Origin: Pyrinomonadaceae bacterium | GTDB lineage: Bacteria; Acidobacteriota; Blastocatellia; Pyrinomonadales; Pyrinomonadaceae | NCBI GenBank assembly: GCA_049679665.1 | Contig: JBAUGL010000066.1 | Coordinates: 3,550 to 67,549, forward strand | Direction: 5' to 3' | DNA: 64,000 nucleotides | Shown: in pieces, positions 38,655 through 42,152 of the stretch | Position numbering within the stretch: position 1 is the first letter of the stretch | Layout: each line of letters begins with the position of its first letter | Program-made: the position numbers and the translations under genes | The notes under the pieces: generated by a model | Seen by the model: only the letters and a program-made list of their open reading frames with translations | The model's database searches: none | Told to the model about the DNA's origin: nothing

Positions 38655-39875
38655 ATGAGCATTTCCGTGGACAGAATTCCGGCACAATTCGAAGTGATCG
38701 ACGGCTCTCTAGATTCACAGATGACACTTTCGATGGGGCCGCAGCACCCTTCGACCCACGGGGTTTTGCGACTGGATCTGAGGCTCGACGGCGAGCTGGT
38801 TGTCAAGGCTATTCCCGACATAGGCTATCTGCATACGGGAATGGAGAAGCTCTTTGAATACAAGAAATACCAGCAGGGTATCGTCATAACGGATCGGATG
38901 GATTATCTTAATCCGCTTGGCAATAACCTTGCGTATGTGATGGCCGCCGAAAAGCTTCTGCAGCTTGAAATACCCGAACGGGCACAGGTCGTCCGTGTGC
39001 TGATGTGTGAACTGCAGCGTATTGCCTCGCATATGGTCTGGTTGGGTACGAGCGCTCTCGATCTCGGCGCGATGAGCGTGTTCTTCTTCTGTTTCAAGCA
39101 GCGCGAAAAGATACTTAACCTTATCGAATCGGCCTCAGGCGGCCGAATGACGCCCAGCTATTTCCGTATCGGCGGACTAATGATGGATCTCCCGGCGGGA
39201 TTCGAACGCCGCTGCAACCAGTTCATGGCCGATTTTCCGGAAGCACTAAGTACCTTTGATACGCTTGTCACCGGGAACACAATTTGGCAAAGCCGAACGA
39301 TGGGGATCGGCGTGATCTCGGCCGAAGAAGCGATCTCATGGGGACTGACGGGGCCGAGCCTTCGCGGAAGCGGGGTTGAACTCGATCTTCGCCGTCACAA
39401 CCCCTATACCGGTTACGAAACTTACGATTTCGACATTCCCACGGAGCCCGACGGCGACGTCTGGTCGCGATTTCGTGTACGTATGCGGGAACTCGACGAA
39501 TCATACAAGATCGTTCGTCAGGCGCTCGAACGCCTGAAGCCCGGCCCGATCAAGGCGGACTCGCCTAAAGTCGTACTACCCGACCGCGACGATATGCGCA
39601 AGCATATGGATTCGCTGATCCATCACTTCCTGATCGTTGCCGAAGGATTTAACGTGCCCGAGGGTGAGGTTTATATGGCGATCGAGGCTTCAAAAGGCGA
39701 ACTCGGTGTCTACATGAAGTCCAACGGCGGCCCGAAGCCGGAACGCGTCCACTTCCGCGGCCCAAGCTTTGTAAATCTTTCGGCGTTGCCCGTGATGAGC
39801 GAAGGAGAGATGGTAGCTGACGTGGTGGCGATAATCGGAAGCCTGGATATTGTGCTTGGAGAGATAGATCGATAG
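38655..39875 (+). CDS. nuoD: NADH-quinone oxidoreductase subunit D
   Basis: MGPQHPSTHGVLRL, GYLHTGMEK, and a C-terminal DIVLGEIDR ending. Confidence 0.97.
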   Translation: MSISVDRIPAQFEVIDGSLDSQMTLSMGPQHPSTHGVLRLDLRLDGELVVKAIPDIGYLHTGMEKLFEYKKYQQGIVITDRMDYLNPLGNNLAYVMAAEKLLQLEIPERAQVVRVLMCELQRIASHMVWLGTSALDLGAMSVFFFCFKQREKILNLIESASGGRMTPSYFRIGGLMMDLPAGFERRCNQFMADFPEALSTFDTLVTGNTIWQSRTMGIGVISAEEAISWGLTGPSLRGSGVELDLRRHNPYTGYETYDFDIPTEPDGDVWSRFRVRMRELDESYKIVRQALERLKPGPIKADSPKVVLPDRDDMRKHMDSLIHHFLIVAEGFNVPEGEVYMAIEASKGELGVYMKSNGGPKPERVHFRGPSFVNLSALPVMSEGEMVADVVAIIGSLDIVLGEIDR

Positions 39876-39881
39876 AACAGT

Positions 39882-40229
39882 ATGGCGGGAGAATACGACG
39901 AGAAATTCGAGCAACTTACAACCGTGATTTCGAGAGTTGTCGGCCGGGTAGACGAACTACGTCTTGAAATGCGTGATATGAGCAGCGAACTGCGATCTAA
40001 TACGACGCAGTTAGGATCGGTTACGACGGCGCTAGGATCGGTTAAAACGGAGCTAAGATCGGTTAAATCGGAACTAGGATCGGTTACGACGCGTCTTGGA
40101 TCGCTTGAAAGTAAAGTCAACTTACTTTCGGCACAGTTCACCGATGTCGCCAGCATGGCGATCAAGGACCATCCGAGGATCGACAACCTTGAACAACGCG
40201 TCGGTGCTCTCGAATCAGAAACACATTGA
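39882..40229 (+). CDS. Small heptad-repeat coiled-coil protein of unknown function inserted between nuoD and nuoE
   Basis: 115-aa ORF 6 nt after the nuoD stop. Its stop overlaps the nuoE ATG (TGATG). Core is LRSNTTQ-LGSVTTA-LGSVKTE-LRSVKSE-LGSVTTR-LGSLESK. Confidence 0.6.
   Translation: MAGEYDEKFEQLTTVISRVVGRVDELRLEMRDMSSELRSNTTQLGSVTTALGSVKTELRSVKSELGSVTTRLGSLESKVNLLSAQFTDVASMAIKDHPRIDNLEQRVGALESETH
39990..40115 (+). repeat. Six tandem 21-bp units (consensus about CTAGGATCGGTTACGACGNNN) encoding heptads
   Basis: Read directly from the sequence. Units start at 39990, 40011, 40032, 40053, 40074 and 40095. Confidence 0.9.
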
Positions 40230-40759
40230 TGGCAACAGCAGCCCCCACAACTTTTACAGATCAGATCGAATACTCCGAAGAAGTAGCGGAGTTTTCGCCG
40301 GATATCATCGATGAAATGTACGGCCACCTCGCTAAGTACCCGCCAGAGCGGAGCCGTTCTGCTTTGATACCGCTCTTGACGCTGGTCCAGCGTGAACGTG
40401 GATGGATAGACAACCCGGGTGTGAATTTCCTCGCAAAATTCCTCGGACTGCATGTTACCGATGTTTGGGAAACGGCGACGTTCTATTCGATGTTCAATCT
40501 GCGCCCAGTGGGCCGCCACCACATCCAGATCTGCAAGACGCTCTCGTGCAAGATCATGGGCGAGCCCGAGATCACCGATCATATCTGTAAAAAGATCGGT
40601 ATTCACCCTGGCGAAACAACCGAGGACGGCAAGTTTACCGTCACGATGGTCGAATGCCTCGGAAGCTGCGGTACGGCGCCGATGATGCAGATCGGGTTTG
40701 ATTATCACGAGGACCTGACAACGAAGAAGGTAGATGAGATTTTGGATTCGTGTCAGTAG
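40229..40759 (+). CDS. nuoE: NADH-quinone oxidoreductase subunit E
   Basis: Thioredoxin-like 2Fe-2S motifs ICKTLSC ... ECLGSCGTAP and the YP...SALIPLL N-terminal region. Confidence 0.93.
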   Translation: MATAAPTTFTDQIEYSEEVAEFSPDIIDEMYGHLAKYPPERSRSALIPLLTLVQRERGWIDNPGVNFLAKFLGLHVTDVWETATFYSMFNLRPVGRHHIQICKTLSCKIMGEPEITDHICKKIGIHPGETTEDGKFTVTMVECLGSCGTAPMMQIGFDYHEDLTTKKVDEILDSCQ

Positions 40760-40814
40760 GTTGGATGTGTCAGTAGCTCGCACGTGTCAGTAGCCCGCAC
40801 GTGAGTAAGGGCTC
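40751..40814 (+). repeat. REP-like cluster: TGTCAGTAG x3 at 17-nt spacing, the third extending into a full unit GTGTCAGTAGCCCGCACGTGAGTAAGGGCTC
   Basis: Copies at 40751, 40768 and 40785. The first copy supplies the nuoE Cys-Gln-stop codons. Confidence 0.75.
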
Positions 40815-41370
40815 GACATATATCTCGTTCAACGTTATTTTGACTACTCGCGACTACATAGAGTTTCAGGATCGTTCGGTAGCAAAAGGGTATTTGATAA
40901 CATTCCGGTGCTACGGAACATGGCTGCACGGAGACGAACAAGGCTCCGTCGATCGACGATGGCACAACACGTATGGCACTACGATGATCAAGCCTGACGC
41001 CGAAAAAGTTAGTCGAAAGGCGAGCCAATTAAAGAGCGAGACTTTTCTGCTGCGCGGACGCGAGCGAAAAGTCGTTGAAGAAGCGATCAGAGAAGTCTGC
41101 GATGTTCGGGGATACGGATTATTCGCTGTGAACGTGAGGACCAATCACGCTCACTCGGTCGTTAGTAATTCCGATAAACCGGAACGATTGATGAATAGCT
41201 TTAAGGCGTATTCTACTAAGGCTCTAAGAACTGCCGGTTTACTCGCAGCCGACGCTCGGGCATGGAGCCGTCATGGAAGCACGAGATATCTCTGGACAGA
41301 CGACCACATTTCAGCGGCGGTTGACTATGTAGTCAACGGGCAGGGCGGTGACTTGCCGAAGTTTGAATAG
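40801..41370 (+). CDS. IS200-like / REP-associated tyrosine transposase (RAYT, HUH-Y1 family)
   Basis: YLITFRCYGTWLHGD N-terminal strand, HUH motif VRTNHAHSVV, catalytic-Tyr region WSRHGSTRYLWTDDHISAAVDYV. GTG start lies inside a REP unit, so the start is uncertain. Confidence 0.8.
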   Translation: MSKGSTYISFNVILTTRDYIEFQDRSVAKGYLITFRCYGTWLHGDEQGSVDRRWHNTYGTTMIKPDAEKVSRKASQLKSETFLLRGRERKVVEEAIREVCDVRGYGLFAVNVRTNHAHSVVSNSDKPERLMNSFKAYSTKALRTAGLLAADARAWSRHGSTRYLWTDDHISAAVDYVVNGQGGDLPKFE

Positions 41371-41375
41371 TAGTT

Positions 41376-41508
41376 GTGTCAGTAGCCCGCACAGTAAGTA
41401 GGGACTCAACGTAGAGCTAGATAACGTTGGCCACCACGCTCGACCACGTTACCTGATATTGACTTATGAATGAACTTGAGCCCTTACTTACGTGCGGGCT
41501 ACTGACAC
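41376..41508. repeat. REPIN-like inverted pair of the same REP unit
   Basis: Direct unit at 41376-41407 (GTGTCAGTAGCCCGCACAGTAAGTAGGGACTC). Inverted unit at 41478-41508 (reverse complement GTGTCAGTAGCCCGCACGTAAGTAAGGGCTC). Spacer is 70 nt. Confidence 0.75.
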
Positions 41509-41559
41509 GAGGATTTGACGACTGAAAAGGTGGATAAGATTTTGGAGGAATGTCAATGA
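41509..41559 (+). pseudogene. Orphan copy of the nuoE 3' terminus (encodes EDLTTEKVDKILEECQ-stop)
   Basis: Hand alignment to 40708-40758 gives about 36/51 nt and 12/16 aa identical. It ends in an ATGA overlap with the next ORF. Confidence 0.65.
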
Positions 41560-41915
41560 GGGAAGGAACTCAAACGATAGCAAATCAGCAACCCACAAAT
41601 GTCTTTGTCGCTTTCGAGATGCTTCTTGAGGAAATAGAGGCGGAGGTCGAAATCGTAAATCGAGCAGGTGGAAGGGCGTTCGAGCGAGGGAACTATGAAG
41701 ATACCCGCGCAATTCTCGAACGAGCTGGCGTGGTCACAAGTTTCCGGGATCGGACTGATGCGTTGCGTCGCGATTGGGATAGCTTCTTCGCTTCAGCCGA
41801 AGCCAAGGAAGATGTTGAGACGCTCGCTGAACGGCGAAATCTTGGACGCCTATCACGAGGATTGAGGACGCCTGAGCAGGCGTACAATCGACCAATTCTT
41901 GAGGTACTGAACTAG
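41550..41915 (+). CDS. Hypothetical protein, N-terminal fragment of a winged-helix protein; ends at an in-frame TAG
   Basis: ATG at 41550 or 41556. The C-terminus ...RTPEQAYNRPILEVLN looks like the opening helix of an Mrr_N-type winged helix that continues in the next ORF. Confidence 0.5.
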   Translation: MSMREGTQTIANQQPTNVFVAFEMLLEEIEAEVEIVNRAGGRAFERGNYEDTRAILERAGVVTSFRDRTDALRRDWDSFFASAEAKEDVETLAERRNLGRLSRGLRTPEQAYNRPILEVLN

Positions 41916-42152
41916 ATGGGCGGCAGGGGGCCAATGAGCGAGGTACTCGACAAAGTTCAAGTCAAGTTGGGTGGTGTGCTAAAAGACGTGGACTTCGAAC
42001 CGTTGGCATCCGACACCAATATTCTTCGTTGGCGAAATGCAGCCCAGTGGGCAAGGAATACGCTGGTTAAGGAAAGGCTGCTTAAGAATGATAGTCCACG
42101 AGGAACTTGGGAAATCACTGAAGCAGGTACTAAGGCCCTACGCGAAACATAA
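41916..42152 (+). CDS. Mrr_N-like winged-helix domain fragment, same frame as the preceding ORF
   Basis: GGRGPMSEVLDKV...LRWRNAAQWARNTLVKERLLKNDSPRGTWEITEAG matches the Mrr N-terminal wHTH pattern. Its stop overlaps the nuoF ATG (TAATG). Confidence 0.55.
   Translation: MGGRGPMSEVLDKVQVKLGGVLKDVDFEPLASDTNILRWRNAAQWARNTLVKERLLKNDSPRGTWEITEAGTKALRET

Follow-up and report, generated by a model that had tools for sequence, protein, structure and literature searches.

A dispensable gene for a predicted coiled-coil protein lies tightly coupled between nuoD and nuoE in Pyrinomonadaceae and changes length in heptad steps

The open reading frame that separates nuoD from nuoE in a soil-dwelling acidobacterium of the Pyrinomonadaceae is a genuine protein-coding gene, which we refer to as cc1. 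It belongs to a family restricted to the Pyrinomonadaceae, has kept its tight coupling to the neighbouring genes across relatives, varies in length by whole heptads, and is dispensable and not a core part of complex I. On balance we lean toward the view that cc1 encodes a dispensable, lineage-specific coiled-coil rod, produced from a coupled slot downstream of nuoD. The gene lies within the window (the whole 64-kb stretch of DNA that was analysed), where the order on the + strand is nuoA-B-C-D, the ORF at 39882-40229 and then nuoE; a genome search found a single nuoD. The relatives with which it was compared belong to the Acidobacteriota, Blastocatellia, Pyrinomonadales/Pyrinomonadaceae, and all of them are metagenome-assembled genomes. 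The features of the locus are as follows.

38655-39875, + strand: nuoD (406 aa), the upstream neighbour; Pfam Complex1_49kDa, E 2e-112.
39858-39863, + strand: GGAGAG, Shine-Dalgarno-like, within the conserved nuoD codons for LGEID and 18 nt 5' of the ORF ATG; read from the sequence.
39876-39881, + strand: AACAGT, the 6-nt spacer from the nuoD stop to the ORF start; read from the sequence.
39882-40229, + strand: cc1, gene for a predicted cytoplasmic coiled-coil protein of 115 aa; from the ORF, dN/dS, AlphaFold2 (AF2) and syntenic homologs.
39882-39989, + strand: N-terminal cap, residues 1-36, MAGEYDEKFE...GRVDELRLEMRDM; from the family alignment.
39990-40115, + strand: heptad array, six 21-bp units, residues 37-78; from repeat analysis, three units being absent from 94-aa orthologs.
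40116-40226, + strand: C-terminal cap, residues 79-115, ...LSAQFTDVASMAIKDHPRIDNLEQRVGALESETH; from the family alignment.
40227-40231, + strand: TGATG, 1-base overlap of the ORF stop with the nuoE start; from the sequence.
40229-40759, + strand: nuoE (176 aa), the downstream neighbour; Pfam 2Fe-2S_thioredx, E 4.9e-52.
39710-40783, - strand: antisense open frame of 357 aa, from the ORF list, judged spurious.

The junctions on both sides of cc1 are tight. The first-pass annotation had placed a 115-aa ORF 6 nt after the nuoD stop with its own stop overlapping nuoE, and the sequence confirms both: the nuoD TAG occupies 39873-39875, the ORF ATG begins at 39882, and the ORF TGA (40227-40229) has A40229 in common with the nuoE ATG. 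That annotation had also regarded the ORF as embedded in the translational coupling of the operon, a claim borne out by relatives. The cc start follows the nuoD stop by 2-17 nt in most simple loci, and nuoE begins -1 to +15 nt after the cc stop in 28 of 31 loci. Since these distances to the nuoD stop and the nuoE start are tight across relatives, the coupled arrangement of cc1 is conserved across the 31 loci. The GGAGAG motif falls within codons for the NuoD C-terminus (...DIVLGEIDR), which is invariant across all relatives compared, and it may serve in initiation. No promoter-like or terminator-like sites were found in 39500-40600.

Comparison of orthologs established the coding status of the frame. 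The dN/dS of cc1 orthologs was 0.05-0.22 (Nei-Gojobori), and that of nuoE in the same genome pairs was 0.065-0.13; synonymous sites were saturated, with a dS between orthologs of 0.8-3. Because the dN/dS of cc1 is low, selection acts on the amino-acid sequence encoded by the + strand frame. The family alignment has a conserved N-terminus (MAGEYDEKFE...DELRLEMRDMR), a conserved C-terminus (QFxDVxxMAIKDHxRIDxLExRVxxLESETH) and a variable middle. Near-invariant columns are G3, E4, Y5, D6, F9, G21, D24, E25, E29, R31, D32 and R34 in the N-terminal cap, and Q85, F86, V89, I94, D96, R99, I100, R106 and E111 in the C-terminal cap. The first-pass annotation had noted that conservation of the DNA repeat without the ORF would speak against a gene. 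Instead, the non-repeat termini are conserved as protein and the repeat is the variable part, which favours a gene. Selection as strong as that on nuoE, together with the conserved charged residues of the caps, points to a putative specific partner of the protein.

The 357-aa antisense frame, which runs opposite the last part of nuoD, cc1 and the whole of nuoE, was rejected, as it covers conserved codons of nuoD and nuoE, is broken in most relatives (leaving antisense frames of 37-65 aa) and selection fits the + strand. Explanations of the locus at the RNA level were likewise rejected: the fold of the array showed no significant excess of structure over shuffled sequences (z = -1.28), a search of Rfam returned no match, and promoter and terminator sites were absent. 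These findings bear on the idea that the peptide itself is irrelevant, the frame acting as a translational coupler or spacer between nuoD and nuoE, or being an accidental frame across a DNA repeat or an RNA element by which the NuoD:NuoE ratio is tuned. In its favour, the ORF maintains the nuoD-to-nuoE coupling chain, and in genomes that lack a cc gene nuoD can be coupled directly to nuoE, the two lying -1 to 4 nt apart. Nevertheless, we regard it as extremely improbable given the dN/dS, the conserved residues outside the repeat, a heptad register that is unbroken, the unremarkable RNA fold with no Rfam match, and the conservation in relatives of the protein and not of the DNA repeat.

The centre of cc1 had been described in the first-pass annotation as six near-identical 21-bp units at 39990-40115. 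The six units stand, all in frame (encoding LRSNTTQ/LGSVTTA/LGSVKTE/LRSVKSE/LGSVTTR/LGSLESK), but near-identity does not, with pairwise DNA identities of 43-86%. The four central units are identical to one another at 14-18 of 21 positions, and the outer two match the rest at 9-14 of 21. Tandem Repeats Finder reported a period of 21, 4.3-4.9 copies, 75-81% matches and a score of 112; a repeat search of the array region likewise gave a spacing of 21 nt. Matches to the 21-bp unit occur 4 times in the 64-kb window, all of them within the ORF, compared to an expected 0.17. The array also carries six GATC sites at 21-bp spacing. We rejected this periodicity as a signal, as the sites stem from G/R-S codons and are lost in orthologs. 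As a separate observation, the window as a whole holds 645 GATC sites where base composition predicts ~249, a 2.6-fold excess of which the six array sites are a share.

Copy-number variation through slippage-prone repeats, which the first-pass annotation had anticipated between strains, was seen at the level of the family. The window protein and homolog P0002 carry six units, and 94-aa orthologs carry three, so that the difference between 115 and 94 aa is a 21-aa indel of 3 heptads. P0069 and P0073 are identical save for one extra LETKFGG heptad, P0058, P0066 and P0064 form an allele series of 98/112/119 aa, and P0041 differs from P0045 by one heptad. Among near-identical alleles of the family, length differences were exactly 1, 2 or 3 heptads. 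The expanded heptads vary from one family member to another (HSQILDR, VKSDV.., MEVRD..), indicating independent repeat types. With a 21-bp unit whose copy number varies between orthologs and alleles, cc1 is a slippage-prone, in-frame tandem-repeat gene. Because the unit is 21 bp, changes in the array alter length only and do not act as an on/off switch; a phase-variable contingency locus was thus rejected, all length differences being multiples of 7 aa. The caps flank the central array, and gain or loss of 21-bp units shifts the length of the predicted rod by ~1 nm per step with the frame kept.

The first-pass annotation had also proposed that the ORF encodes a coiled coil, and the modelling agrees. 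AlphaFold2, run with a 20-sequence alignment, predicted helices at residues 2-96 and 98-114 with a mean pLDDT of 90.2, providing the continuous alpha-helix that defines the coiled-coil class. The heptad register is unbroken over residues 9-92, giving 12 heptads in one fixed phase, and within this stretch 23 of 24 a/d positions (96%) hold L/I/V/M/F, compared to 8% at other positions. No signal peptide, lipobox or membrane segment was found in the cc1 protein (MAGEYDEKFEQ...ALESETH). Taken together, the model and the heptad pattern firmly predict a soluble, all-helical protein with a 12-heptad coiled coil, for which standard coiled-coil geometry predicts a rod of ~12.5 nm.

Searches for known families agreed with the first-pass statement that no complex I subunit of this architecture is known. 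No family in Pfam, NCBIfam, PHROGs, PADLOC or PDB sequences scored above cut-off against the window protein, Foldseek gave 0 matches in the PDB for the single-helix model, and homology to described complex I subunits or assembly factors was found in none of Pfam, NCBIfam, PDB sequences and Foldseek. Matches to SMC, tape measure, reovirus sigma-1 and P22 gp26 proteins were sub-threshold and mutually inconsistent and were rejected as matches of composition; those in PHROGs and PADLOC were generic coiled-coil noise. The best Pfam match of the window protein was DUF7310 (PF23991), a coiled-coil region whose model describes a generic heptad coiled coil carrying no functional information. Membership was rejected, as the score of 24 bits (E 5.7e-5) lies below the gathering cut-off of 40; a long form of the family, P0040, also stays below this cut-off at 32.6 bits, and many cc family members match DUF7310 weakly. 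Separately, other Blastocatellia encode coiled-coil proteins in unrelated contexts with long heptad arrays, e.g. 12 copies of RLDA[IV]E[TN] (L070:1123-2040(-), L074:1300-2028(-), L071:1288-1893(-), L011, L012 and L075). In two species of one genus, such proteins measure 305 and 242 aa, a difference of 63 aa of repeats, and L070 and L071 exceed the DUF7310 cut-off.

Among 5.8 billion protein clusters we found homologs of 81-180 aa, and the cc family is undescribed and fast-changing, with ~80 clusters among the 5.8 billion and none of them named. Source annotations of the homologs read 'hypothetical' or are coiled-coil mis-calls ('chromosome segregation ATPase', 'Lpp', 'dynactin subunit'). Long multi-stretch proteins from a 1.84-billion representative search (e.g. 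P0083, 1256 aa) showed generic repeat similarity and were placed outside the family. Full-text literature searches returned nothing on the cc family, nor on extra genes in acidobacterial nuo operons.

We determined the distribution of cc1 using contigs from ENA, NCBI, JGI and Logan, species representatives, same-genus genomes and seven further genera. All cc homologs came from metagenome-assembled genomes of Pyrinomonadaceae. The gene is single-copy. More than 40 copies from at least 8 genera had a context that could be read, and all of them sit at the nuoD-nuoE junction. The window's own genome holds no cc1 paralog, the second-best match having an E of 0.26. Two assemblies, G011 (L009 and L017) and G024, contain two nuoD-cc-nuoE loci or two nuoE copies, which suggests mixed strains in metagenome-assembled genomes and no true paralogy.

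A census anchored on NuoE in same-genus genomes, to which the other loci were added, gave 45 non-redundant nuoD-nuoE junctions. This survey of nuoD-nuoE spacers, which the first-pass annotation had recommended, revealed variation in presence and absence: the cc gene occupies 31 of the 45 junctions and is absent from 14. Seven junctions couple nuoD to nuoE directly, 5 have an ORF-less spacer of 62-189 nt, and 2 have a gene for a secreted TonB_C-domain protein alone between nuoD and nuoE. The ORF-less spacers of relatives hold no recognisable remnants of a cc gene, and genomes with empty junctions have no cc copies elsewhere. In three same-genus genomes (G051, G020 and G005; loci L039, L052 and L034, respectively), ORF-less spacers of 62-77 nt are built of 7-nt repeats arranged as inverted arms (GTCAGCT.../...CTGACCA CTGACCC in L039; GGAAAATG... 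in L034). A NuoD+NuoE tree, which is weakly resolved over its 268 columns, needs at least 8 changes of presence and absence, and cc1 is also found in an outgroup genus; this outgroup presence fits cc1 being an old gene that may have been lost repeatedly. The C-termini of NuoD and N-termini of NuoE did not differ between carriers and non-carriers, with no visible co-adaptation.

Family proteins range from 78 to 199 aa across loci. In some relatives a second helical ORF, B (91 aa, ...FEQRISV), follows the cc gene (L022:988-1263, L025:972-1247, L026:3332-3607), and in long forms of 127-199 aa ORF B is fused to the N-terminal half of cc (L027:1921-2373, L013:1411-1944 and P0040). Conservation of the long form is good, with 20 invariant columns across 24 sequences, and a helical bundle is predicted for its C-terminal half. 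The model of this class has a pLDDT of 65, and Foldseek matched it only to designed 3-helix bundles at E > 0.07.

Genes other than cc1 also occupy the junctions of the operon. In the window, the nuoE-nuoF junction (40801-42152) holds a RAYT-like Y1 transposase and two ORFs, of which the second encodes an Mrr_N domain. In the relatives compared at this junction (L003, L004, L061, L064) it holds a SnoaL_2 gene. L061 and L065 have a Thx ribosomal-protein gene 5' of nuoG, and genes for Thx, TonB_C, Ureidogly_lyase and SnoaL_2 proteins are found at nuo junctions in relatives. The whole nuo operon is a mosaic of inserted genes. In several relatives, a secreted TonB_C protein of 222-380 aa is encoded directly after nuoD, with or without a cc gene (L023:1491-2633, L026:2169-2957, L038:746-1492, L045:668-1486, L050:282-950); its domain was supported by Pfam E values of 2e-12 and 5e-11 in the two that were scanned.

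A RAYT/REP cassette at the neighbouring junction of the same operon, the patchy distribution of the cc gene, and the 7-nt repeat hairpins in ORF-less spacers of relatives would be in keeping with a small cassette, mobile or spread by recombination, that favours operon junctions as selfish DNA with no host function. So would a second branch of the family, cc2 (described below), which is multi-copy and dispersed among unrelated housekeeping genes; nuoD1 and nuoD2 share the peptide encoded at their 3' ends, and these ends could mediate recombination. We nonetheless consider a selfish cassette very unlikely. The region 39600-40500 contains no inverted repeats, flanking direct repeats are absent, flanks of 6 nt and -1 nt leave no space for either, and no transposase is associated with the cc gene, the RAYT at 40801-41370 being a separate cassette beyond nuoE. 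PHROGs and PADLOC contributed only generic coiled-coil noise. Moreover, cc1 was found nowhere but at nuoD-nuoE and occurs in an outgroup genus, consistent with vertical inheritance accompanied by losses, and the saturated dS between orthologs argues for an old residence.

Weaker matches to the cc1 profile in other genera lie beside nuoD2, a paralogous gene whose product is 45-48% identical to NuoD. It belongs to a second complex-I-type operon of the order nuoC-nuoD2-nuoH, present in 80 of 151 genomes of the family alongside the canonical operon and absent from the window's genus; no nuoEFG genes adjoin it. We refer to this branch as cc2 (consensus MSxDRxTEILNYLSAISREVGELRxE...LExRVxxLEGKQ). 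Its homology to cc1 is based on profile similarity and the shared neighbourhood: end-to-end hhalign gave a probability of 95.8% and an E of 6.7e-9, a score that coiled-coil composition may inflate. At nuoD2 loci of other genera (L092, L093, L095, L104-L133), a ureidoglycolate-lyase-like gene often separates nuoD2 from nuoH. cc2 flanks nuoD2 at 10 of 30 nuoD2 loci, where it occupies the nuoC-nuoD2 or the nuoD2-nuoH junction, in the latter case often after the ureidoglycolate-lyase-like gene. A genome-wide search found 1-5 copies of cc2 per genome in 32 of 151 genomes. By coordinates, ~16 of ~49 copies are beside nuoD2, a share far in excess of the ~0.1% that chance would give, and ~33 are elsewhere, between unrelated housekeeping genes and in some cases in genomes without nuoD2. 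Because cc2 is spread yet enriched beside nuoD2, the cc superfamily is dispersed with a strong hot spot by nuoD genes.

The evidence above bears most directly on whether cc1 is a lineage-specific, non-essential accessory subunit of complex I, or an assembly or stability factor. Such a protein would attach to the Q module, which contains NuoD, or to the interface of this module with the N module (NuoEFG), and its rod length would be tunable by heptads. The strict residence of cc1 at nuoD-nuoE in at least 8 genera, its coupling on both sides, a dN/dS comparable to that of nuoE, the charged residues conserved in the caps and the enrichment of cc2 beside nuoD2 all argue for it, and bacterial supernumerary subunits do exist, namely the NDUFS4/S6/A12 homologs of P. 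denitrificans and the NDUFA9 homolog of M. smegmatis (PMC12361115). Against it, 14 of 45 junctions have no cc1, nor do the genomes concerned carry it elsewhere, and neither the NuoD C-terminus nor the NuoE N-terminus shows a change that would compensate; a range of 78-199 aa is hard to square with a fixed binding groove; some cc2 copies lie in unrelated contexts or in genomes that lack nuoD2; the searches revealed no similarity to known complex I subunits or assembly factors; and unrelated genes occupy the same nuo junctions. We therefore treat an accessory role as possible but doubtful. The first-pass annotation had implied such a role, which stays unproven given the 14 empty junctions, the location of most cc2 copies away from nuo genes and the sharing of junctions with unrelated genes.

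A bolder proposal, that cc1 and cc2 are a new class of optional bacterial complex I partners which dock on NuoD and were recruited independently to two paralogous operons, strikes us as unlikely. We hold in similarly low regard its corollary that soluble rods, their length tuned in 1-nm heptad steps, might e.g. tether the peripheral arm or make it more stable, or link the Q and N modules while the complex is being assembled.

That cc1 is a dispensable occupant of a slot downstream of nuoD is supported by selection on the protein and its caps, the predicted long helix with its hydrophobic a/d core, the tight junctions, change in heptad steps, the 14 absences, the NuoD and NuoE termini that are alike in carriers and non-carriers, a permissive operon and the dispersal of cc2. 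Three observations stand against it: all of the more than 40 readable cc1 copies are locked at nuoD-nuoE across at least 8 genera, cc2 is strongly enriched beside nuoD2 in two distinct positions, and purifying selection matching that on nuoE, together with the charged residues conserved in the caps, suggests a specific partner. A gene that was purely a passenger would explain the enrichment of cc2 beside nuoD2 weakly, and the enrichment fits a possible functional tie to NuoD. If cc1 is such an occupant, we envisage that it would be translated by termination-reinitiation within the nuo mRNA, which would keep the nuoD-to-nuoE coupling chain intact and could yield the protein in amounts comparable to the subunits of the peripheral arm. 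The site downstream of nuoD would then be a privileged, cheap expression slot, owing to the SD-like GGAGAG in the invariant LGEID codons, which cc1 would fill as a dispensable passenger. The protein itself would form a homo-oligomeric rod whose conserved caps may bind some partner, and it would presumably not be obligate in complex I.

Several known systems resemble parts of this picture. Bacterial supernumerary subunits of complex I also include Nqo15 and Nqo16 of Thermus, and most such subunits are encoded outside the operon. Like cc1, if it proves to be one, they are lineage-restricted additions to the 14-subunit core. They differ from it in being globular and in having a demonstrated physical association, and share no sequence or fold similarity with cc1. 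To our knowledge, complex I of Acidobacteriota has been the subject of no structural study. [quoted passage not shown] These alphaproteobacterial URFs are, like cc1, extra ORFs that lie among complex I genes and share their transcript, and it is mainly by position that they have been linked to the enzyme. The likeness is positional only: they belong to another phylum, kinship in sequence is not expected, and cc1 varies by heptads and is often absent within one genus. Lpp (PF04728) and Borrelia Bdr are, like the cc family, short coiled-coil rods whose length shifts in whole repeat units, and both are homo-oligomeric. Lpp carries a signal peptide with a lipobox, and Bdr is anchored in the membrane, whereas the window protein lacks all of these features and is predicted to be cytoplasmic. 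A Pfam LPP match to the window protein was sub-threshold and compositional and was rejected.

Whether cc1 is a passenger or a partner of complex I, the cc family is at present unannotated or mis-named by automatic pipelines. Were cc1 an accessory protein, it would represent a new kind of supernumerary partner for bacterial complex I. If, as we lean toward, cc1 is a passenger, then a conserved operon junction acts as an expression slot that keeps and loses small lineage-specific genes, the slot consisting of an invariant nuoD 3' end with a built-in SD-like site and stop-start coupling. In that case, cc1 would also provide a natural example of the length of a coiled coil evolving in quantised heptad steps.
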